Source: PVC group bacterium (GTDB lineage Bacteria; GCA-001730085; JADFSZ01). Taken from it: DNA of 9,680 nucleotides. Position 1 is the stretch's first letter; every line of letters begins with the position of its first letter. Positions 410 to 9,453 of this stretch are shown in pieces. The position numbers and the translations under genes were made by a program. The stretch spans positions 1-9,680 of the forward strand of contig JADFSZ010000053.1 in NCBI GenBank assembly GCA_022560555.1, read 5' to 3'. The notes below the pieces were generated by a model. That model was not told the origin of the DNA. It saw only the letters and a program-made list of their open reading frames with translations, and did not search any database.

Positions 410-1159
410 ATGAAAAACAAATCTAATTTATTCGCAGGCACGACACTTCAAGATCCATATATTAGTGTTGTTGTTCCTGTCTATCAGAATAGAGAGACGC
501 TATATGCACTCTTTAACCGTTTGCACCAAGTTCTCCAATCTAAGGGATTTTCATATGAAATTATTTTTGTGAATGATGCGAGTCCTGATGATTTACTTGT
601 CATATTAGAAAAGCTCGCTCGTGAAAATTCACAAGTAGGAGTGTTGGATTTGGAGCGCAATATAGGACAAAATCAGGCGGTATTGGTTGGTTTACGCTAT
701 GCGAGGGGAACATGTGTAGTGATTATGGATGCAGACTTGCAGGATCCCCCAGAGGCTATTCCTGATCTCGTTGATAAGTTACAAGAAGGTACAGCCGCTG
801 TTTTTGCGGGAAGACGCGGCCAGTATGAGTCTCCCTTTAGACTTTTCACCTCTCGGCTGTTTAAAAAACTGCTTCAGTTATTATGCGGTGTTCCTGAAGA
901 TGCCGGTATTTTTGTGGCAATGAATAGACATACAGTAAAGTGCCTTCTTGGCTTTAATACAACACGGCCTTCTATTGTGGCAATGATTGGCTGCACTCAG
1001 CTTCCTCTGGTATCGATTCCGGTAGTGCGAGCTCAGCGTCCTTCCGGTATTTCCGCCTACAGCTTCTGGAGGCGTTTCAAGGCCGGCCTCCTAACCATAG
1101 CCTGGGTAATTGCCTGGAAGTGGTTTCCTGGCTTTCGTACGTCGAAACGTTGCGAATAA
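410..1159 (+). CDS. Family 2 glycosyltransferase (polyprenyl-phosphate sugar transferase / DPM1-ArnC-like), possibly C-terminally truncated
   Basis: Classic GT2 N-terminus ISVVVPVYQNRETL...YEIIFVNDASPDD and the D-x-D region VIMDADLQDPPEAIPDL. At 249 aa it ends just after the G-x-S-x-YS segment. Longer relatives normally carry two C-terminal TM helices after that point. The last codons run into a transposase relic. Confidence 0.88.
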   Translation: MKNKSNLFAGTTLQDPYISVVVPVYQNRETLYALFNRLHQVLQSKGFSYEIIFVNDASPDDLLVILEKLARENSQVGVLDLERNIGQNQAVLVGLRYARGTCVVIMDADLQDPPEAIPDLVDKLQEGTAAVFAGRRGQYESPFRLFTSRLFKKLLQLLCGVPEDAGIFVAMNRHTVKCLLGFNTTRPSIVAMIGCTQLPLVSIPVVRAQRPSGISAYSFWRRFKAGLLTIAWVIAWKWFPGFRTSKRCE

Positions 1160-1495
1160 AGATGCCTATTTGCTATCTTTAGTGCGGTATATCCATTTGA
1201 ACCCTGTTAGAGCAAATATGATAGAGTATAAGGATCTCAGGCGTTATAAATGGTCAGGACACAGAGAAATATTAGAAGAAAGGGAAGCGCCTTTCAGCCC
1301 CCGTTATAATTGGACTCAAGCATAAGGGAGAAATCTTGGTAGAATGAAGGCCTCTTTAGAAGTGGCGGAGGCAAATGGGGTGTGAGGGAGCGCAAGAATG
1401 AAGAGCGTGAGATGTATGACGATCGAATATTGGGAAACGGTAGTTTTGTTGAGAACGTAGATGTGCTCAAACTTCTTTACATGAGAAGGTTTTGA
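1151..1495 (+). pseudogene. Relic of an IS200-like / COG1943 (Y1, HUH-type) transposase. Only the C-terminal part survives, split over at least two frames
   Basis: ORF 1110..1325 encodes KDAYLLSLVRYIHLNPVRANMIEYKDLRRYKWSGHREIL. This is the highly conserved YLLxLxRYIHLNPVRA...Y.WSSH block of COG1943 transposases. After the stop at 1323-1325, homology resumes in another frame (1343..1495): SGGGKWGVRERKNEEREMYDDRILGNGSFVENV, which is the typical D-x-RILG-x-x-x-FVE tail. The N-terminal HUH and catalytic Tyr regions are absent. Confidence 0.7.
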
Positions 1496-1533
1496 AATTG
1501 TCGGGGTTGTTCCGAATCTAAGGAAAAGAGATA

Positions 1534-2334
1534 ATGGTAAAAACTAATATTCCCTTTTATCTTTCGCTCGCAGGGATCGCGGGGATTGTCTTTTTTCTAG
1601 CCTTGGAAAGGGTTTTTCCTTTTCGGCGGATGACGTTACTGCCCTGGCAAAGATGGCTTATCAATTTTTCCCTCAGTTTTTGTAACCTTCTTATTGTGGA
1701 TCAAGGCTTTGTGATTCTTCTGCAACGAACGTCTCTTTTTACAGAGCTGTTTCATCTAGATTTATTTGGCCGTCTCGGTCTCAATAGTTTTTCGCGCGTC
1801 ATACTTACGATTGTGATTTTAGATCTCGCGATGTATGTCTGGCATCGTCTCAATCACGCGATTCCTTTTTTGTGGCGGTTTCACAGGGTGCACCACAGCG
1901 ATCGCGAAGTGGATGTCACGACAGCTTCCCGTTTCCATTTTGGAGAGGTGACCTTGGGAGCCATGATCAATTATGCCCTCATGCTTTCTTTGGGTGCCTC
2001 CATTTGGGAGGTACGCATTTTTAAGGTGATCTTTGTTTTTATGACCCAACTCACGCATAGCAATATCAGGATCGCCAAACCACAGGAGGATATCTTCTGG
2101 CTTGTCTTTGTGTCGCCATCCATGCATCGCATTCACCATTCGGATATTCGTTGCGAGACCGATTCGAATTACGGTACGATATTTTCCGTTTGGGACAGAT
2201 TGTTCAGAACTATAGTGAGTGGTGTCAATGCCAAGAAGCTTCACTTTGGTCTTAAGGAATTTGAAAAACCGCAGGAACTCACATGGCCGCGGCTCATCAC
2301 CATGCCCTTGAAACCCGTGGAAAGGAAAAAATGA
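1534..2334 (+). CDS. Fatty acid hydroxylase / sterol desaturase family integral membrane protein (di-iron, histidine-box enzyme)
   Basis: Three histidine boxes in the canonical order: WHRLNH, FHRVHHSD and MHRIHHSD. Several hydrophobic helices. Purine-rich RBS (AAGGAAAAGAG) upstream of the ATG at 1534. Confidence 0.88.
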   Translation: MVKTNIPFYLSLAGIAGIVFFLALERVFPFRRMTLLPWQRWLINFSLSFCNLLIVDQGFVILLQRTSLFTELFHLDLFGRLGLNSFSRVILTIVILDLAMYVWHRLNHAIPFLWRFHRVHHSDREVDVTTASRFHFGEVTLGAMINYALMLSLGASIWEVRIFKVIFVFMTQLTHSNIRIAKPQEDIFWLVFVSPSMHRIHHSDIRCETDSNYGTIFSVWDRLFRTIVSGVNAKKLHFGLKEFEKPQELTWPRLITMPLKPVERKK

Positions 2335-3356
2335 TGAAGACAGGAACCGTGAAATTCAAAATCGTTTTTCTGCTTATGGTGCTGATATTAGTGCCGGGCG
2401 GGGTATGGGGCATAGCAGGGCTGCGTGTCCCTTCCTCACGACTCGTAGATTTTGATTATGAAATACGCATTCACGATATTCCTCAAGGCAGCAGGGAATT
2501 GAAAGTCTGGCTGCCTCTTTTAGCTCAAACCCCCTATCAGGAAATTAAAAACATAACCATCGAACCACAGGAACACACGGCAATCTACTATGATCCGGTC
2601 TATCACAATAAAATTCTCAGTTATACGGTTGACATAGCGCGACGGGATTCCTTAATATTCAATGTGCGCTATCGCGTGAAGCGCTATGAATATTCAAATA
2701 AACACGGTATTTTGAAGACGGTTTTGGCGAAAGATGCGGATTTGAATCGATACCTCAAGGCCAATCGTTTGGTCACCATAAGTCCCAAGGTTAAAGACTT
2801 GGCCGATGAAATTACAATAGCCGAGACATCGACGATGGGGAAAGCTCGTGCGATTTATGACTATATTTTTCACAATGTTTCGTACGACAAAACCATTTTG
2901 GGTTGGGGAAACGGCGATACGGAACGGGTCTGTTCGGTAAAGGCCGGCAACTGCACGGATTTTCATTCGTTATTTATTTCGCTCGCGCGTGCCGTGGATA
3001 TTCCGGCAAAATTCGTGATGGGTGTTCCTCTCATCCATAATACACCGGAAGGCGAGATTTGCGGATATCATTGCTGGGCGGAGTTTTATGATGAGATTTT
3101 AGGGTGGGTACCCGTGGATATTTCGGAGGCTTGGAAGGACAAAGCGAAATACGAATATTATTTCGGCACAATCGGACCGGACCGCCTTGAGGTGAGCGTG
3201 GGACGGGACATTGTTTTGGATCCGAATATTCACATGGAACCTTTGAATTATTTTATTTATCCGTATGTGGAAATAGATGGAAAGGTTTTTGAGCAGGTCC
3301 GAACATCTTTTCGGTTTAAAGAGGTGAATCAAAGAAAGGAGGCGCGCGCAACTTAA
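2331..3356 (+). CDS. Secreted transglutaminase-like (Cys-His-Asp) superfamily protein
   Basis: I prefer the ATG at 2331 over the ORF-track start at 2283. It has GGAAAGGA 5-12 nt upstream, forms an ATGA overlap with the upstream stop (2332-2334), and yields a signal-peptide-like N-terminus MMKTGTVKFKIVFLLMVLILVPGGVWG. Transglutaminase core motifs are present: GNCTDFHSLFISLARAVDIPAK (Cys), GYHCWAEFY (His) and GWVPVDISE (Asp). Confidence 0.88.
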   Translation: MMKTGTVKFKIVFLLMVLILVPGGVWGIAGLRVPSSRLVDFDYEIRIHDIPQGSRELKVWLPLLAQTPYQEIKNITIEPQEHTAIYYDPVYHNKILSYTVDIARRDSLIFNVRYRVKRYEYSNKHGILKTVLAKDADLNRYLKANRLVTISPKVKDLADEITIAETSTMGKARAIYDYIFHNVSYDKTILGWGNGDTERVCSVKAGNCTDFHSLFISLARAVDIPAKFVMGVPLIHNTPEGEICGYHCWAEFYDEILGWVPVDISEAWKDKAKYEYYFGTIGPDRLEVSVGRDIVLDPNIHMEPLNYFIYPYVEIDGKVFEQVRTSFRFKEVNQRKEARAT

Positions 3357-3415
3357 TACAATGCAAAATTCGTTGGTTTACATACTTCACAACACAATAA
3401 ATGAGGAGAAAATAA

Positions 3416-3952
3416 GTGAACAAATTCATAGTCTTAATCATGATTATCAATGCTATGGTTTTTGGAGCCGGTTCGATGGTTTTGGCGGCCGAGCATGGAG
3501 GGCAAGAACACGGTGGAACAAGCGTAAAAGAAAACGGCGGGACAAGCACTCCGTCTAATGATGCCATTCGGACGGCCATGACAGATTATGTCATGAGAGA
3601 ATCCGAGGCAACGGGAACATTAGATGTGTTAGATCCCGAAACGGGGCAAACGCGACAATTAGAACTCGTCAGAGTTCATGAACGTGTTGGCAAAACAGGA
3701 AATTACTATTACTCTTGTGCGGATTTTAAAGATATCAAGACCGGTCAGCTTCTTGATCTTGATCTTGATGTGGAAGACGAAGGCGGCCGCTTAAGTGTCA
3801 AGGACGTGAGAATTCACAAAGTCGATGGGCATGAACGCTATACGTACGATTCCTCTGACAATCGAATTCCTGTCATGGAGGAAGGCAGTCATAGGGAAGG
3901 ATCTGAGCACGGAGGCAAAGAACACGGAGGCAAGGAGCACGGAGGCAATTAA
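3416..3952 (+). CDS. Secreted protein of unknown function with E-H-G-G tandem repeats at both ends of the mature chain (candidate periplasmic metal-binding protein)
   Basis: GTG start 7 nt downstream of GAGGAG (3403-3408). Signal peptide MNKFIVLIMIINAMVFGAGSMVLA, then AEHGGQEHGGTSVKENGGTS. A roughly 110 aa acidic core follows. The C-terminus is SEHGGKEHGGKEHGGN. I cannot name a family for the core. Confidence 0.78.
   Translation: MNKFIVLIMIINAMVFGAGSMVLAAEHGGQEHGGTSVKENGGTSTPSNDAIRTAMTDYVMRESEATGTLDVLDPETGQTRQLELVRVHERVGKTGNYYYSCADFKDIKTGQLLDLDLDVEDEGGRLSVKDVRIHKVDGHERYTYDSSDNRIPVMEEGSHREGSEHGGKEHGGKEHGGN
3491..3544 (+). repeat. In-frame 15-bp repeats encoding EHGGQ / EHGGT, plus a degenerate ENGGT copy
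   Basis: gagcatggagggcaa (3491-3505) and gaacacggtggaaca (3506-3520) are adjacent copies. gaaaacggcgggaca (3530-3544) is a diverged third copy after a 9-bp spacer. Confidence 0.8.
3905..3949 (+). repeat. Three perfect-register 15-bp tandem repeats encoding EHGGK-EHGGK-EHGGN directly before the stop codon
   Basis: gagcacggaggcaaa (3905-3919), gaacacggaggcaag (3920-3934) and gagcacggaggcaat (3935-3949), followed by TAA at 3950-3952. Confidence 0.95.
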
Positions 3953-4136
3953 GAGGATGTAAGTGGAGCGGAGCCGCTGTCAAGATTTTGGAGCGCGCAT
4001 TTAGAGGCCTTTGCCTCCCGAAATACACCATCTAAAACTAAAGTATTCGAAGAAATGTTGGAAAAATGTTTTCAATCATTTGTGACTCAGTTCAATATGC
4101 TTTTAAGTCTGTTAGAAAGTTTGGACGATTGAAATC

Positions 4137-4721
4137 ATGGCGGATCACGGAATAACAATCAGGAGGCTTATTGTTCGTGCGCGGAAGTTGACGATTGTTT
4201 TGACTTTTCTATTCGGACTGAGTCTGAATGGGATGAACAGTCCGCAAGCGGCACAAGTCGGCCAACAAGCATCCCAATGGGTTGTCTCGGAATGGGTCAA
4301 CAGTGAGCCGATCTCATTAGACCAGCTTAAAGGGAAGGTCGTTGTGATTGATTTTTTTCAGCTGTGGTGTCCGGGGTGTAATCGTTTTTCCATTCCGCTT
4401 ATGCTTCAATGGGAGAAAAAATATAAAAACGCCGCTGATGTTCAGCTGGTAGGGATTCATACGGTTTTCGAAGGGCATGATTATCAAACAGCCGAACGCT
4501 TGAGGGAATATGTAAAAGAAAAGGGGATACAACATCCGGTAGGAATGGACGCGCATGTGAGCGACACCCGGCTCCCGGAGACCATGATCCGTTATCAAAC
4601 AAAAGGAACCCCTGAGATGGCGATTGTGGACAAGCAAGGAGTGATTCGTTTTCAAAAATTCGGCTCTTTTGATATTGGAGAGGCAGAAAGTTTGATCGCG
4701 GAATTACGACGTGCCTTCTAA
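4137..4721 (+). CDS. Exported thioredoxin-fold thiol:disulfide oxidoreductase (redoxin / TlpA-like family), CPGC active site
   Basis: KGKVVVIDFFQLWCPGCNRFSIPL is the beta-strand plus W-C-x-x-C signature of TlpA/AhpC-TSA-like redoxins. The conserved cis-Pro region GTPEMAIVD lies near the C-terminus. The N-terminus has a hydrophobic segment LTIVLTFLFGLSL followed by PQAAQ, consistent with a signal peptide or anchor. Confidence 0.85.
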   Translation: MADHGITIRRLIVRARKLTIVLTFLFGLSLNGMNSPQAAQVGQQASQWVVSEWVNSEPISLDQLKGKVVVIDFFQLWCPGCNRFSIPLMLQWEKKYKNAADVQLVGIHTVFEGHDYQTAERLREYVKEKGIQHPVGMDAHVSDTRLPETMIRYQTKGTPEMAIVDKQGVIRFQKFGSFDIGEAESLIAELRRAF

Positions 4722-4750: not shown

Positions 4751-5158
4751 ATGAACAATATTCTTCGAGGATTCATAATGTTTTTGTTCTTAGGTCTTGC
4801 TTGTCCCCTGCCGTCTTTTGCCATGCCGGTGGAAGAGCTATCTTATGAAGGGAAAATACCCGAGGAAGGGTTGTTTCATACGGCAAGGTTTAAAAGTCTA
4901 GGGCTGAATGTCGATAGCGGCACGAAAAATATTCATCATGAAAAAATGCGTGTTCAACAACGGCGTAAATCAAAAGCCCCAATGAGGACAACTGCCGGTG
5001 GATATGCATTCGCAACTCTTTTGGACCAAGATCATTTTGATTTAGATGTGCTGGTGATGGGATTCCTTTCTCCTTCTGCTCCCGCAGTTCCGGAGCCGAT
5101 GTCTCTTATTCTTGTGGCGTCGGGATTGTTGGGGGTCTTGACTCGACGACGCAGATGA
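4751..5158 (+). CDS. Small PEP-CTERM sorting-domain protein (predicted exosortase substrate)
   Basis: Strong RBS AAGGAGGAG (4737-4745). N-terminal signal peptide MFLFLGLACPLPSFA. The C-terminus VPEPMSLILVASGLLGVLTRRRR has the textbook PEP-CTERM architecture: PEP motif, TM helix and Arg cluster. Confidence 0.85.
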   Translation: MNNILRGFIMFLFLGLACPLPSFAMPVEELSYEGKIPEEGLFHTARFKSLGLNVDSGTKNIHHEKMRVQQRRKSKAPMRTTAGGYAFATLLDQDHFDLDVLVMGFLSPSAPAVPEPMSLILVASGLLGVLTRRRR

Positions 5159-5274: not shown

Positions 5275-6237
5275 ATGAAAAATTCTAATAAATGGCTCCT
5301 ATCAATAAAAGAAAGAAAGTTCAGAGGTATTCGGATTTGTCTGAGCGCTATTGTTATTGTTGGAGTATTCTTAAGTTATGAATTTTTAACGGCCCGTTCA
5401 AGAGTCGAATCTGAAATAAAAGATATTTACTTTAGCTTGAAACAAGCTTCCGCGGAAAAGCAAGATTTAGACAGCACAAAGAGAGAAGAACTCATCAGAA
5501 AACTTATTTCCAAAGAGCCTTCTTACCGTTGGGAGGCCGCTTCTGAGTTGGCAAGGTGGAAAGATCAAAAATCGGTAAATGCCATCATTGATGCCATGCG
5601 GGACACAAAAGGAACAATTCGTACTTGTGTCATGGCTGAGTCATTAGGTAGGATTGGGGACAGAAAAGCCATACCCGCTCTCATTCAAGCCATGAATCAG
5701 CCTGTTAATCAAGACTTGCGTATTTGCGCCACTCAAGCGATAGGTGAAATGAGGGATAAACGAGCTTTAAGCCCCCTCATAGAAAAAATACGTCATTCGG
5801 AAGACGAGTTTTTCACTGCTGAGGCACTAGGAAAATTAGGAGATAAAAAAGCGTTACCCATATTAGATGAGGCCGCCAAGAAATCAAAGGATCCTCTCAT
5901 TCAAGCGGCTATCCATCGCGCCATTGTGATGATTCAAATACAGAATGAGAAAGATCTTGTTTCGGCATTCATTGAGGCATTGAATAACGAAGATGATCAA
6001 ATAAGGTTCTGGGCCCTTAAAAATTTAGCTCTTAAGCGGGACTCAAAAGCCATTGAGCCCATTGCCAATACACTCCAAACATCAAATTCTAAGGATATAA
6101 AAATATATGCAGCGGCTACTTTAGCCTATTATGGAAAAGGAACAAGACCCTTCCTTGAAAAAGCAAAACTGACGGACGATAAGATAACCCTTTGGGCAGC
6201 GGAGTATGCTATTAAGCTTTTGAATAAAAAATCATGA
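5275..6237 (+). CDS. HEAT-repeat (PBS-lyase HEAT-like) protein with a single N-terminal TM anchor
   Basis: Repeated units with the signature G-x-(I/L/M)-(G/R)-D-x-(K/R)-A-(I/L)-(P/S)-x-L-I: GRIGDRKAIPALIQAM, GEMRDKRALSPLIEKI, GKLGDKKALPILDEAA and LKRDSKAIEPIANTL. The N-terminus is MKNSNKWLLSIKERKFRGIR followed by a hydrophobic helix ICLSAIVIVGVFLSYEFL. The stop TGA (6235-6237) overlaps the sigma factor ATG (6234-6236). Confidence 0.82.
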   Translation: MKNSNKWLLSIKERKFRGIRICLSAIVIVGVFLSYEFLTARSRVESEIKDIYFSLKQASAEKQDLDSTKREELIRKLISKEPSYRWEAASELARWKDQKSVNAIIDAMRDTKGTIRTCVMAESLGRIGDRKAIPALIQAMNQPVNQDLRICATQAIGEMRDKRALSPLIEKIRHSEDEFFTAEALGKLGDKKALPILDEAAKKSKDPLIQAAIHRAIVMIQIQNEKDLVSAFIEALNNEDDQIRFWALKNLALKRDSKAIEPIANTLQTSNSKDIKIYAAATLAYYGKGTRPFLEKAKLTDDKITLWAAEYAIKLLNKKS

Positions 6238-6818
6238 ATTCATCAACGATAGAAATACAACGTAAATCGTCCACCCCGGAAACCTGGGTGGACCATTATG
6301 GCGACTATCTTTATAGGTATGCTTTGAGTCGTCTACGGAATGCCGGACTTGCGGAAAATCTTGTTCAGGAAACCTTTCTTGCCGCGCTTCATTCACGGGA
6401 CCGCTTCTCAGGTTTGTCCACAGAAAAAACCTGGCTTACCGGAATTTTGAAACATAAGATTGTCGATCACTTTCGCAAGAATTACAGAGAACATCCTGTC
6501 AGTGACTTTGTCAATGAGGATGAATCCGTAGATGAGTTTTTTACAAAATCCGGAATATGGAAAAACCAGCCCGGACATTGGACTCTTGATCCGGCAAAAC
6601 TTCTGGAAAATAAAGAGTTTTGGGAAGTCTTTAAAGAGTGTCTTAACAGACTCCCCAGGCCTATGGCAGATGCCTTTATGTTAAGCACAATGGAAGGCAT
6701 GAAAACGGATGAAGTTTGTAAGATATTGAATATTACACGAACTAATTTGTGGGTTATTCTTTGCCGTGCACGCATGAGGCTGAGGCAATCTCTGGAAAAT
6801 TGTTGGTTCCAAAATTAA
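6234..6818 (+). CDS. ECF-type (sigma-70 family, group 4) RNA polymerase sigma factor
   Basis: Region 2: YLYRYALSRLRNAGLAENLVQETFLAAL...TWLTGILKHKIVDHFRK. Region 4 helix-turn-helix: MKTDEVCKILNITRTNLWVILCRARMRLRQSLE. The linker between them is long, about 40 aa. The C-terminal ...LENCWF ending resembles the TIGR02943-type ECF subgroup, as far as I recall. Confidence 0.92.
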   Translation: MNSSTIEIQRKSSTPETWVDHYGDYLYRYALSRLRNAGLAENLVQETFLAALHSRDRFSGLSTEKTWLTGILKHKIVDHFRKNYREHPVSDFVNEDESVDEFFTKSGIWKNQPGHWTLDPAKLLENKEFWEVFKECLNRLPRPMADAFMLSTMEGMKTDEVCKILNITRTNLWVILCRARMRLRQSLENCWFQN

Positions 6819-6857: not shown

Positions 6858-6909
6858 ATCATTTTATTATTTGCATTTCTTTTGTTCTTTAATTTTTGAG
6901 GAATTCAAT

Positions 6910-7638
6910 GTGAATCAGATTTCTTTAGGTATGGCTTTTATAGCAGGGATACTATCGTTTCTCTCGCCTTGCGTATTGCCGCTGATACCGGGATACATTT
7001 CGTTTCTATCCGGAGTATCGGTCGAAGTGCTCGAGAAGGACACACATCGTCGAGAGGTCTTTTGGAAAACGGGCATGGCTTCGATCTTTTTTGTATTGGG
7101 ATTTTCAGCCGTTTTTATAGCTTTAGGCGCCTCCGCTTCTCTTGTCGGAAAATTTTTACTATCTCATATGACAATATTTACCAAGGTCGCCGGGGTATGT
7201 ATTGTGATATTGGGACTGCATCTTGTGGGGATTCTAAAAATAAGCTGGCTCTACACAGAAAAGAGATTGAGAATCAAGCGGCATTCACCTGGTTTTTTCG
7301 GCGCTTTCGTGATCGGACTTGCTTTTGCTTTTGGCTGGACTCCGTGTATCGGACCCATTCTGGCAGGAATTCTTACGCTGGCAGCAGCCCAAAAGACCGT
7401 TTTAGAGGGGATGTTTCTTTTAGCTGTTTATTCATCAGGACTTGGCATTCCGTTTATTATTACAGGGTTTAGTGTTGGTCTATTCATGCGCTTTTTTAAG
7501 CGTTACAAACGATTTATTCGCTCCGGAGAGATTGTGGCCGGATCGCTTTTGATCGCGATCGGGGTGCTTGTGTTTTCCAATAATTTGACGATGCTACTGA
7601 GATATATCCCCTCTTTCTTTTACAAATTTACAATATAA
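6910..7638 (+). CDS. ccdA: CcdA / DsbD-family transmembrane thiol:disulfide electron transporter (cytochrome c biogenesis protein CcdA family)
   Basis: Both conserved membrane-embedded Cys motifs are present: LSFLSPCVLPLIPGY and FGWTPCIGPILAGIL. It is polytopic and hydrophobic throughout. I prefer the GTG at 6910 (GAGG at 6898-6901, 8 nt upstream) to the TTG at 6871. The ATG at 6931 is an alternative. Confidence 0.9.
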   Translation: MNQISLGMAFIAGILSFLSPCVLPLIPGYISFLSGVSVEVLEKDTHRREVFWKTGMASIFFVLGFSAVFIALGASASLVGKFLLSHMTIFTKVAGVCIVILGLHLVGILKISWLYTEKRLRIKRHSPGFFGAFVIGLAFAFGWTPCIGPILAGILTLAAAQKTVLEGMFLLAVYSSGLGIPFIITGFSVGLFMRFFKRYKRFIRSGEIVAGSLLIAIGVLVFSNNLTMLLRYIPSFFYKFTI

Positions 7639-7659: not shown

Positions 7660-8178
7660 ATGAAAAAAAGAAAGTTAATTCCGTTCATCGTAGTCATATT
7701 ACTGATAATGGCCCTGAGCCCTTTATTGAAAAGTCAACGGACGCCTGTTGCAGAAAACAACTCAGGAGATCAAGTCGCTTCAGATTTCACTCTCAATGAT
7801 CTTGATAACAAGCCTTTTCGGTTTTTTGATCTTAAAGGGAAAGTGATCATTCTCGATTTCTGGGCGACCTGGTGTCCCCCATGCATAGCGGAATTACCTC
7901 ATTTCAAAGCTCTTTATAGTGAGTATCAAGAACAGGGATTAGAGATTGTCGGCGTTTCTCTTGATCAAGGGGGCGCTGATGTGGTTAGGCCTTTTGTCAA
8001 GGAGCATGAAATCAATTATACAATGCTCATTAGCAACCAAGAGGTGGTTGAGGATTACGGAGGAATTCGCGGGATTCCCACGACATTCATCATTGATCGG
8101 GAAGGGCGTATTGTTGAGACGTTTGTGGGCTATCGGGATAAAGAAGTATTTGAGTCAGTTATTCAAGAGCTTTTATGA
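7660..8178 (+). CDS. TlpA/ResA-like periplasmic thiol:disulfide oxidoreductase, CPPC active site, N-terminal signal anchor
   Basis: RBS AGGAG (7644-7648). N-terminal anchor KLIPFIVVILLIMALSPLL. Motifs DFTLNDLDNKPFRFFDLKGKVIILDFWATWCPPCIAELP, LEIVGVSLD and GIPTTFIIDREGRIV are a textbook TlpA/ResA/DsbE family pattern. It lies directly downstream of ccdA, the usual electron donor. Confidence 0.92.
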   Translation: MKKRKLIPFIVVILLIMALSPLLKSQRTPVAENNSGDQVASDFTLNDLDNKPFRFFDLKGKVIILDFWATWCPPCIAELPHFKALYSEYQEQGLEIVGVSLDQGGADVVRPFVKEHEINYTMLISNQEVVEDYGGIRGIPTTFIIDREGRIVETFVGYRDKEVFESVIQELL

Positions 8179-8194
8179 ATGACAAGGGTGACTG

Positions 8195-8653
8195 ATGAAT
8201 AAAAATCCTACTGTCTCTCGCAATGCTCCGTGTCCGTGCGGAAGCGGTAAGAAGTACAAACGTTGTTGTGCTTTAAAGGGAGAGCAAGAAGCCTCTTCGC
8301 ACCGACAACTAAAGAGAGCCTTGAAATGGATCGGCGGAGCGGCCGTTGTGCTCCTGGTCGGCTACGGGATTTTCAGGAATGGTCCTGTAAGCAGGCCCAC
8401 CGGTTATAATTCGGTTATCTCTGAAGGTTCGCGGGGAAGGGGTTACTACACGGACTCAGATATCACTGCGGTGGATTTCTCCGGACTCACACAGGCACAA
8501 AGAAAAAAAGTTTTAGATAAAACCAACAAGATGCAGTGCCCCTGCGGATGTGCAATGACGCTGGCCCAATGTGTTGCGGTTGATAGGACCTGTCCTTTAA
8601 GAAGCTCGAACATTAAAAAAATGAGAGATCTTGTAAAGGAATTAAGTGGATAA
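8195..8653 (+). CDS. Single-pass membrane protein: N-terminal SEC-C zinc-binding motif, one TM helix, C-terminal Cys-rich domain (CxCxC-x6-C-x6-C)
   Basis: aa 13-25, CPCGSGKKYKRCC, is the SEC-C motif (the SecA C-terminal zinc finger pattern C-x-C-x8-C-C/H). aa 44-60, KWIGGAAVVLLVGYGIF, is a TM helix. aa 115-133, CPCGCAMTLAQCVAVDRTC (nt 8537-8593), is a second cysteine cluster. A weak SD-like AAGGGTG lies at 8184-8190. The gap from the tlpA-like gene is 16 nt. Confidence 0.78.
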   Translation: MNKNPTVSRNAPCPCGSGKKYKRCCALKGEQEASSHRQLKRALKWIGGAAVVLLVGYGIFRNGPVSRPTGYNSVISEGSRGRGYYTDSDITAVDFSGLTQAQRKKVLDKTNKMQCPCGCAMTLAQCVAVDRTCPLRSSNIKKMRDLVKELSG

Positions 8654-8727
8654 AAAAATGATCTTGGTCAAAAAGTTTATTGGTTATCAAGACATGGAAA
8701 TTTTTTAATCACTATTCAGAAACTTTT

Positions 8728-9453
8728 ATGAAATGGGCATATTTGAAATTTATCGTTATAGGGGGCCTTGTCTGTCTCATTGCATCTCTTTTCGTTTTCT
8801 ACTCTTATGACAAAGAAGGACCCATAGTAAAACAGGAACTTAAAGAAAACGATTTTATGGCACAGAGGCAAAGAGCTTTAGAAAATCAAGCAAAATTCTT
8901 TTCTCCCCGAAGTCCCTGGGTTAAAGAAATCTATATCGTAAAGCCAGGGGATTCTCTTTACCAAATATCCCGCCTATTTGGTATTACTGTTCAGTTGCTA
9001 AAACAAGTGAATGATCTTGTCTCTGATACAATCCATCCTGGAATGAAGTTGGGAATCCCTGATCCAAAGTTTCACATTGATATAAATCTTTCCCATAAAC
9101 AGTTGTTTCTTTATAGCAACAGCGATCTGGTCGCTGCCTATCGTGTGGGAATCGGAAAAAATATTTCCACCCCTCTAGGCGCATTTACAATTACAAATAA
9201 ACTGATTGATCCTGTCTGGTATCGCATTGGAGCTGTTATTCCTGCTGGTAGTCCGGAGAATGCTTTAGGTTCTCGATGGATGGGTTTGTCAGTAGAAGGT
9301 TACGGCATTCATGGCACAATTGAGCCGGAAAGCATAGGCCAGGCGACTAGTTCAGGCTGTATCAGGATGCATAATAAAGATGTTGAACAATTATTTGACT
9401 GGGTTTCAATTGGAATTCCGGTCAGGATTGTTTATGATGAAGAGGAGCCCTGA
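8728..9453 (+). CDS. L,D-transpeptidase (YkuD domain) with LysM peptidoglycan-binding domain and N-terminal membrane anchor
   Basis: LysM: YIVKPGDSLYQISRLFGITVQLLKQVNDLVSDTIHPGMKLGIP. YkuD catalytic region: YGIHGTIEPESIGQATSSGCIRMHNKDVEQLF (His ... S-x-G-C-hydrophobic-R-hydrophobic). I prefer the ATG at 8728 (MKWAYLKFIVIGGLVCLIASLFVF, a TM anchor) over the TTG at 8680. No clear SD is present, so the start is uncertain. Confidence 0.88.
   Translation: MKWAYLKFIVIGGLVCLIASLFVFYSYDKEGPIVKQELKENDFMAQRQRALENQAKFFSPRSPWVKEIYIVKPGDSLYQISRLFGITVQLLKQVNDLVSDTIHPGMKLGIPDPKFHIDINLSHKQLFLYSNSDLVAAYRVGIGKNISTPLGAFTITNKLIDPVWYRIGAVIPAGSPENALGSRWMGLSVEGYGIHGTIEPESIGQATSSGCIRMHNKDVEQLFDWVSIGIPVRIVYDEEEP

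Follow-up and report, generated by a model that had tools for sequence, protein, structure and literature searches.

A membrane-tethered five-cysteine domain linked to TlpA-type reductases and joined to an N-terminal SEC-C motif in a PVC group bacterium

Introduction

Reductases of the TlpA/ResA type and CcdA occur in many bacteria, and TlpA reduces the copper-binding cysteines of ScoI and CoxB. Clients of TlpA/ResA-type reductases and CcdA are known in few cases only, namely apocytochromes, ScoI, CoxB and Msr. In System I of cytochrome c maturation, apocytochrome c thiols are reduced in the periplasm by CcmH/NrfF/CycL, while SEC-C modules, the other kind of cysteine unit dealt with here, are cytoplasmic. 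CcmH, a substrate of CcmG reduction, is a membrane-anchored three-helix bundle with LRCPKC in its helix 1-2 loop (PMC3884852). The SEC-C motif is defined by the ligand pattern CXCX8C[C/H] together with a conserved serine and an aromatic residue, and in SecA the serine (Ser-889) points toward the metal and sets the preference for iron (bioRxiv 10.1101/613315). The present study concerns a gene at positions 8195-8653 (forward strand, stop codon included) of a 9,680-nucleotide (nt) stretch of DNA from a PVC group bacterium (contig JADFSZ010000053.1, GenBank assembly GCA_022560555.1), hereafter the window. It encodes a bitopic membrane protein of 152 amino acids (aa) and lies behind ccdA and a tlpA-like gene.

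The protein falls into two halves. Its C-terminal half is an autonomous, widespread and undescribed module, part of a large family without a model in the Pfam and NCBIfam copies used and with no solved relative detectable by sequence, and its N-terminal half is a known motif, SEC-C, in an unusual position. The five-cysteine module is established here as membrane-tethered, extracytoplasmic and linked to TlpA-type reductases, the link resting on gene fusion (the Rosetta-stone argument) and on adjacency. It probably binds metal or passes electrons in the cell envelope.

Results

The five-cysteine domain and its family

The open reading frame (ORF) is 459 nt long, starts with ATG and has a putative Shine-Dalgarno-like AAGGGTG (8184-8190, +) 4 nt 5' of the start codon. 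Its distance from the stop codon of the tlpA-like gene (8178) is 16 nt, and the coordinates that an initial annotation, made from the letters alone, had given for the ORF, for both of its cysteine clusters and for this gap were all exact. A search of 5.8 billion proteins retrieved 17 full-length homologues at 31-91% identity, all metagenomic and one of them named as an Omnitrophota metagenome-assembled genome; the ORF is hence not unique to the window, and the gene is real and conserved, not an orphan. The window protein itself had no exact match on record in public assemblies.

The extracytoplasmic three-helix domain, delimited by profile searches and AlphaFold, comprises aa 84-152 (8444-8650, +). 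It contains the second cysteine cluster, CPCGCAMTLAQCVAVDRTC (aa 115-133, nt 8537-8593, +), whose loop and core, C115-x-C117-G-C119 ... C126 ... D130 ... C133-P134, stand out by their conservation among domain instances. A profile of aa 84-152 recovered 1165 proteins from a word-indexed database, and the best 120 of these matches were each 76-126 aa long and carried no Pfam domain. An exhaustive HMMER search of 1.84 billion cluster representatives returned 751 clusters (clustered at 50% identity) at E<=1e-3, including 205 at E<=1e-10. In GTDB species genomes the domain was located at 80 loci, mostly in Acidobacteriota (Vicinamibacterales, Acidiferrales/Acidoferrum, Polarisedimenticolia) and also in Omnitrophota, Eisenbacteria and Caldithrix. 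Pfam and NCBIfam gave no match above cutoff for the C-terminal half; DUF1970 came up at E=0.066, under its cutoff, and was disregarded. Searching the PDB by sequence, both with a single sequence and with a profile, produced chance matches only, and no description of the five-cysteine domain was found in the literature searched.

Family members share a three-helix unit of ~65 aa with the signature N-x3-C-x-C-G-C-x2-T-[LIV]-A-x-C-x3-D-x2-C-P, every residue of which is present in the window protein. For each of the five cysteines, retention was 99% or more over 373 unique domain instances, and the further signature residues D130 (364/369), A124 (360/372), N111 (349/372), G118 (345/371) and T122 (341/371) were likewise highly conserved. 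Repeated replacement was seen for C119 only: four degenerate repeats from multi-copy proteins had R, S, Y or K in its place and kept C115, C117, C126 and C133, which suggests a four-cysteine core plus one extra cysteine. In the alignment of the window protein with its full-length homologues (18 sequences), P12, C13, C15, G16, S17, K19, Y21, K22 and C24 were invariant, and C25, N111, C115, C117, C119, T122, C126, D130, C133 and P134 were found in at least 90% of rows. The cysteine exceptions in this alignment were a single replacement of C25 by His and two truncated sequences; His at this position is a known ligand variant of SEC-C. The cysteines are therefore retained in homologues, both in the 18 full-length sequences and across the 373 domain instances.

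The commonest architecture consisted of a polybasic tail, a transmembrane (TM) helix and the five-cysteine domain, while the window's form, SEC-C followed by TM helix and domain, was a minority with 5 of the 80 genome loci. Since most homologues have a mere polybasic tail before the TM helix, SEC-C is dispensable in the family; the combined architecture that had caught the attention of the initial annotation holds, but most members of the far larger, uncharacterised domain family to which it belongs are built otherwise. A TM or signal sequence followed by a TlpA-like AhpC-TSA/Redoxin domain (WATWC[PG]PC) and then the five-cysteine domain was found at 27 of the 80 loci, these being in Acidobacteriota, and in 12 of 38 long cluster representatives. 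Other members had a lipoprotein signal, the domain and two DsbA/Thioredoxin_4 domains, so that the fusions to DsbA-like proteins suggested initially do exist (L066, L076, L079, P0339, P0382). Two or three tandem copies of the domain, some behind His-rich tracts (P0242, P0250, P0253), and two copies joined to a caspase-like domain made up further architectures. In every architecture examined, a signal peptide, a lipobox or a TM anchor preceded the domain.

SEC-C motif and membrane topology

The SEC-C (SecA-like metal-binding) motif occupies aa 9-26 (8219-8272, +) and matched Pfam PF02810 with 39.6 bits against a gathering cutoff of 20.4 (E=4.7e-10). The first cysteine cluster, CPCGSGKKYKRCC (aa 13-25, nt 8231-8269), carries the full ligand pattern as C13-P-C15-G-S17-G-K-K-Y21-K-R-C24-C25, in which S17 and Y21 are the equivalents of the SecA serine (S889) and aromatic residue (Y893). 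About 18 residues past this cluster a hydrophobic segment begins (at about aa 42-61), and a hydropathy peak and an AlphaFold helix place the TM anchor, LKWIGGAAVVLLVGYGIF, at aa ~43-61 (8321-8377, +). An N-terminal SEC-C motif at this distance from a TM helix had been proposed initially and was thus borne out by the Pfam match, the hydrophobic segment and the model. Behind the anchor lies a variable, disordered linker (aa 62-83; 8378-8443, +) of low model confidence, which varies in length and is gapped in the homologue alignment.

Ten Lys/Arg residues were counted in the N-terminal part of the window protein, and homologues have a hydrophobic segment at the equivalent place with 7-15 Lys/Arg before it. 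Because of this basic N-terminal part, the cytoplasmic habit of SEC-C and the extracytoplasmic placement of the five-cysteine domain in its other architectures and fusion partners, the protein is predicted to be of type II, N-in/C-out, with SEC-C in the cytoplasm. As far as sequence analysis shows, the cysteine clusters therefore lie at both membrane faces, as first suggested.

Public gene calls for homologues were seen to begin at an internal Met, dropping an in-frame SEC-C (L009 5836-6354; L011 about 5900-6321). SEC-C is for this reason under-reported in database architectures of the five-cysteine family, and annotators should be warned that the motif is often lost from these genes through the start choice of gene callers. 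An N-terminal SEC-C and TM helix was also observed on proteins whose ectodomain consists of repeats of the form PEPWEYDxxNxxHWDPxHxHWHDGPPP (P0020, P0041, P0047, P0074, P0089, P0111). These His-rich ectodomains look metal-binding and suggest a wider class of SEC-C-anchored periplasmic metal proteins.

Linkage to thioredoxin-like reductases

In the window, the gene is preceded by ccdA (6871-7638, +; DsbD_TM, Pfam PF02683, E=9.8e-18), which encodes a membrane electron conduit, and by the gene for a membrane-anchored TlpA/ResA-like thioredoxin with WCPPC (7660-8178, +; AhpC-TSA/Redoxin in Pfam, ResA subfamily in NCBIfam), the proposed reductant. The same placement, with ccdA upstream of tlpA, was found at L001 and L005. 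Two independent Omnitrophota-type contigs carried, in this order, genes for a DsbH-like thioredoxin, CcdA, TlpA, the target protein, a Redoxin and a nitroreductase-domain protein. The CcdA-TlpA-target order in Omnitrophota relatives and the TlpA fusions described above uphold the link to a reducing pathway that had been read from the gene order at the outset, but linkage to ccdA itself was confined to the closest relatives, i.e., five loci that represent the window and two independent contigs, one of which was seen three times.

A Redoxin gene lay directly downstream of the target at L001, L005, L006, L007 and L046, starting 2 nt past the target's stop codon at L005 and L007. Its window orthologue encodes a second thioredoxin-like protein, with WCPGC (4137-4721, +; tblastn and gene tables), which showed 61-64% identity to the Redoxin of L001, L005 and L006 and 41-45% to that of L007 and L046; it was found moved 3.5 kb upstream in the window. 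At L007 and L046 the order was target, Redoxin, DsbH-like. A 727-aa DsbH/DUF255 thioredoxin-like protein and a protein of ~735 aa were observed to flank the target cluster in Omnitrophota-type relatives (L001 1273-3456 and 5977-8184; also at L005, L007 and L046), and the latter had nitroreductase-family (PF00881) matches in two stretches, the best at aa 556-732. Neither of these two genes was present within the 9.7-kb window.

In other lineages the target stood beside unrelated genes, such as an ABC (ATP-binding cassette) transporter at L004 and L009, and in Eisenbacteria the five-cysteine gene was within about 1 kb of a thioredoxin-like gene. Unbiased clustering of neighbours at the 80 genome loci revealed no universal partner; most of what it recovered was synteny within lineages (PQQ propeller, desaturase, RNase III, FKBP) or, in high-GC genomes, shadow ORFs. 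At seven acidobacterial loci the TlpA-domain fusion was preceded, on the same strand and at a distance of ~1 kb or more, by a gene for a Cu(I)-type P1B-1 ATPase. This ATPase, recognised by CPC, YNx4P and MxxSS and by YHS and HMBD domains at its N-terminus, outnumbered every other neighbour family in a scanned batch of 121 neighbour ORFs. An ORF of 75-77 aa (MT[YF]MTVTYELQ...), of unknown family, recurred in the seven loci after the ATPase gene and upstream of the fusion; examples of the pair are 1804-4152 and 4173-4406 at L057, and 768-3341 and 3830-4057 at L053.

Predicted structure and resemblances to CcmH and SEC-C

An AlphaFold2 model of the full-length protein, built from a 96-sequence alignment, showed a continuous helix (21-62) through the TM segment, a disordered stretch at aa 63-80 with a predicted local distance difference test (pLDDT) score below 50, and a C-terminal domain at pLDDT ~96 with helices at 100-112, 123-129 and 136-151. 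The helical-looking C-terminal segment noted from the letters alone was thereby recovered, and the linker noted there is modelled as disordered. The domain modelled alone reached pLDDT 95.2 and a predicted template-modelling score (pTM) of 0.80. In the models, the loop C115-P-C117-G-C119-A-M (115-121) is shut by a beta-bridge between residues 114 and 122, C126 is on helix 2, and C133 is in the loop between helices 2 and 3.

A CcmH-like fold had been recorded as an idea ahead of any fold search, from the layout of a helix, a cysteine motif, [ST]-[IL]-A and a further helix. Foldseek returned no match for the full-length model, which is dominated by the long TM helix. For the domain-only model, just one of 350,542 PDB chains matched, namely 2HL7 (Pseudomonas aeruginosa CcmH, periplasmic domain), with template-modelling scores of 0.53/0.47, a root-mean-square deviation of 2.9 Å over 60 columns, E=5.3 and a probability of 0.20. 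Comparison by hhalign with a shallow CcmH profile of 36 sequences, from gammaproteobacteria only, gave P=0.0036, a probability of 9% and a score of 18.6, against 10.4 +/- 2.1 for shuffles (z about 4); this score was reached by 1 of 150 column shuffles and by none of 150 block shuffles. With a single CcmH sequence the probability was 0.7%. C115 meets the first CcmH cysteine in the profile alignment, and C115 and C119 pair with both CcmH cysteines only by way of an inserted gap. The Pfam model CcmH (PF03918) had no match at E<=0.1 in the window protein or at E<=1 in six other family members, and the LRCXXC redox motif was absent, the five-cysteine domain having N-x3-C-x-C-G-C. Given the Foldseek E value of 5.3 and probability of 0.20 and the hhalign probability of 9%, the support for CcmH is not significant; a resemblance in fold is plausible, and homology is unproven.

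A second resemblance concerns the cysteine loop. Both clusters of the window protein start with CPCG, as had been pointed out, but the Pro of the second is not kept and most homologues have CTCGC. What the clusters share is the spacing C-x-C-G-[S/C]-G-x5-C, which in the outer loop reads C115-x-C117-G-C119-G/A-x5-C126, with C119 in the position of SecA Ser-889. An hhalign comparison with a SEC-C motif profile (129 sequences) aligned 17 columns in the knuckle register with P=1.8e-4 and a probability of 48%.

Further genes in the window

The gene for an extracytoplasmic function (ECF) sigma factor of the TIGR02943 family (6234-6818, +) is followed directly by ccdA, and a LysM-YkuD L,D-transpeptidase (8680-9453, +) is encoded beyond the target; both were identified by Pfam/NCBIfam scans. 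The ECF sigma, CcdA, TlpA/ResA-like, target and L,D-transpeptidase genes are co-directional, and no plus-strand terminator-like site was found between the first and the last of them. An ECF sigma gene stood next to the target in the window and in no other fetched locus, and no anti-sigma gene was recognisable beside it among the window ORFs by Pfam/NCBIfam.

A transglutaminase-like gene (2283-3356, +) travels with the target at L003 and L046. It is followed by a gene for a 178-aa secreted protein (3416-3952, +), p178, which belongs to no Pfam family and has His/Gly-rich repeats at both ends (AEHGGQEHGG... and EHGGKEHGGKEHGGN). Orthologues of p178 adjoin the target gene at L003 and L046, always behind the transglutaminase-like gene, and p178 may be a metal-binding partner. 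Between the two thioredoxin-like genes of the window are genes for a protein with a PEP-CTERM sorting signal (4751-5158, +) and for a HEAT/PBS-lyase-repeat protein (5275-6237, +); a HEAT_2 protein was also seen near the target at L003. A 71-aa ORF with YIHLNPVRANMIEYKDLRRYKWSGH at 1110-1325 (+) had no Pfam match and resembles a fragment of an IS200/RAYT-type Y1 transposase.

Discussion

A proposed reduced thiolate site, probably for metal

The reading I favour, tentatively and at somewhat less than an even chance, is that the five-cysteine domain forms a periplasmic thiolate site on a CcmH-like scaffold, probably metal-binding (Cu(I) or Zn) and kept reduced by CcdA and TlpA. A Cu(I) or Zn site in the outer cluster had been offered initially as one option among several and has become a live, even favoured one. 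The single TM helix would tether the three-helix domain at the outer face of the cytoplasmic membrane, where the SEC-C-like knuckle (C115-x-C117-G-C119-G/A-x5-C126) and C133 would together provide the thiolate site for Cu(I) or Zn(II). Electrons would run from CcdA to the neighbouring TlpA-like thioredoxin and on to the domain's cysteines, keeping the latter reduced, and the domain would serve close to the membrane as a metal chaperone, buffer or sensor. From sequence and models I infer the metal binding, the metal concerned, the reduction by TlpA and the role of SEC-C. The last would be that of an accessory, basic, metal-stabilised anchor or topogenic module, given that a polybasic tail replaces SEC-C in most homologues; lipid or ribosome binding or redox/metal sensing are also possible. 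The CC pair of the YchJ SEC-C has been reported as a sensor of reactive oxygen species (ROS) (PMC13377102), and by analogy SEC-C of the window protein might sense metal or redox state.

Several features would fit a metal site. The five cysteines are near-universal, G118 and D130 are highly conserved, and the four-cysteine core, the knuckle glycines and the SEC-C-like register point the same way. Tandem copies with His-rich tracts are what metal-handling proteins typically show and would be unusual in a redox relay. To these may be added the synteny with the copper ATPase, the EHGG repeats of p178, the His-rich ectodomains of other SEC-C and TM proteins, the fusions and adjacency to TlpA-like proteins and the constant extracytoplasmic placement.

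A number of observations weigh against it. The copper ATPase synteny is found in one acidobacterial clade and may reflect lineage alone, and the several hundred nt that separate ATPase and fusion gene speak against a tight operon. Stand-alone family members are mostly without conserved metal or redox neighbours, and no classical copper domain (HMA, CopC, PCuAC, cupredoxin) was seen fused to the five-cysteine family. The hhalign score against SEC-C was reached by 2 of 150 shuffles and covers only 17 Cys-rich columns, and the Pfam SEC-C model is silent on the C-terminal domain. Finally, the sole fold match, CcmH, is a redox protein and not a metal protein.

The chief rival, unlikely on present evidence yet to be taken seriously, is a CcmH-like thiol-disulfide relay, in which a cysteine pair in the helix 1-2 loop would take electrons from a CcdA-reduced TlpA/CcmG-like thioredoxin and pass them to a periplasmic client, e.g., the CXXCH of an apocytochrome c or another disulfide, the remaining cysteines being structural. 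It draws on a CcmH idea that preceded the fold search, on the single PDB match of that search, on an hhalign score above nearly all shuffles with the first cysteine aligned, and on the three-helix bundle, loop CXXC, membrane anchor and reduction by CcmG known for CcmH (PMC3884852). The CcdA-TlpA-target order and the TlpA fusions moreover parallel the DsbD/CcdA to CcmG to CcmH sequence. Against a relay stand the non-significant Foldseek and hhalign probabilities, the shallow CcmH profile, the silence of PF03918, the missing LRCXXC and a number of conserved cysteines, five, that exceeds relay needs. His-rich tandem repeats and fusions to DsbA-type proteins, which are normally oxidising, fit it poorly, and ccm, ccs and nrf genes were found neither among the window ORFs nor in the top families listed for the scanned neighbours; CcdA and the TlpA-like gene are all that is shared with cytochrome c maturation pathways. 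Relay and metal site need not exclude each other, since metal could also be bound on a scaffold of the CcmH kind.

A structural or adaptor module, i.e., a disulfide- or zinc-stabilised bundle that docks or oligomerises thioredoxin-fold partners and has no chemistry of its own, is rather improbable. The four-cysteine core with its conserved Gly, Asn and Asp does resemble a structural zinc site or two structural disulfides, and partners that are reducing (TlpA-like), of oxidising type (DsbA-like) and caspase-like would suit a generic interaction module. N-terminal oligomerisation domains are likewise known for DsbC, DsbG and ScsC, which also counts for such a role. ScsC has been reviewed in PMC10907172. 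A purely structural site would, however, have no need of the near-universal fifth cysteine (C119), tandem arrays with His-rich tracts suggest ligand binding, and most family members consist of a TM anchor and the domain only, so that the domain must act on its own.

Very unlikely is a part in transmembrane signalling, with the protein serving as anti-sigma factor for the ECF sigma factor (6234-6818) or as a periplasmic thiol/metal sensor coupled to SEC-C. A short cytoplasmic zinc finger, a TM helix and an outer sensor domain would give an anti-sigma-like layout, no anti-sigma gene adjoins that of the ECF sigma factor, and there is the ROS sensing by the YchJ CC pair cited above (PMC13377102). 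The adjacency is nevertheless confined to the window, with two genes between sigma factor and target, the cytoplasmic part, at ~42 aa, leaves no room for a known anti-sigma domain and is devoid of the ZAS motif HxxxCxxC, and most homologues have no SEC-C. The anti-sigma assignment was rejected on the ground that the sigma gene is not conserved beside the target. A spurious or decaying ORF, which the short length and the missing annotation in most sources might suggest, is refuted by full-length homologues (n=17, down to 31% identity) that share its motifs, by the 751 domain clusters, by a confidently modelled domain and by conserved synteny, and is practically out of the question.

Significance

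As a domain repeatedly fused or adjacent to reductases, with no family model or solved relative, the five-cysteine domain (69 aa, hundreds of clusters, chiefly in Acidobacteriota, Omnitrophota and Eisenbacteria) is a concrete and readily expressed candidate for the client or partner still missing from envelope thiol and copper homeostasis. A true relationship to CcmH would extend the CcmH fold to roles other than cytochrome c maturation, and metal binding by the knuckle would make the latter a new periplasmic metal-binding motif whose pattern is related to that of the SecA finger. Bolder, and a long shot at present, is the proposal of a new periplasmic metal- or redox-active class, with a SEC-C-like knuckle on a CcmH-like bundle that serves as dedicated partner of TlpA- and DsbA-type oxidoreductases, of which class the window protein would be a variant with knuckles at two faces. 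If this were so, such a two-face protein could couple cytoplasmic Fe/Zn/ROS status to periplasmic thiol/copper status or relay metal across that interface, and would represent a kind of bitopic sensor or chaperone not recognised before.

Comparison with known systems

In its functional setting, the target sits in a known kind of system, the envelope thiol and metal pathways served by CcdA and TlpA. Like CcmH/NrfF/CycL (PF03918), it is predicted to be a three-helix bundle of small size that is anchored in the membrane and faces the periplasm, with presumed functional cysteines where helix 1 ends and in the stretch leading to helix 2, and it would work next to a TlpA/CcmG-type thioredoxin supplied by DsbD/CcdA. 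It differs in its motif, CxCGC plus two further conserved cysteines in place of LRCXXC, and in its anchor, which is N-terminal (type II), whereas that of CcmH is C-terminal after a signal peptide; the five-cysteine family also occurs in tandem repeats or fused to TlpA- or DsbA-like domains.

Compared with SecA, YecA and YchJ, the N-terminal motif is a bona fide member of SEC-C (PF02810), CXCX8CC with Ser and Tyr, yet it is located at the extreme N-terminus of a membrane protein, while theirs is C-terminal in soluble ones. The periplasmic loop, in contrast to a true SEC-C, is without the neighbouring fourth ligand (C/H), is embedded in a bundle of helices and is extracytoplasmic.

The TlpA-dependent ScoI/SenC and CoxB and the Scs proteins would be similar in that cysteine sites of the envelope need reduction by a membrane-tethered TlpA-like thioredoxin via a DsbD/CcdA-type protein, and in a copper link, which in the present case runs through ATPase synteny. 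Scs (ScsB/ScsC/ScsD, ScsA) furthermore shares an operon of several thioredoxin-fold genes and one small membrane protein. Unlike Sco and ScsC, the target domain has no thioredoxin fold. ScsA, which carries CLAC within the membrane or close to it and has either two predicted TM helices or a lipobox (PMC10907172), does not resemble the target domain; homology to it was rejected, the CLAC CX2C, the two TM helices or lipobox and the peroxidase-like signature all being absent from the 152-aa sequence, which instead joins a known cytoplasmic motif to an extracytoplasmic five-cysteine domain.

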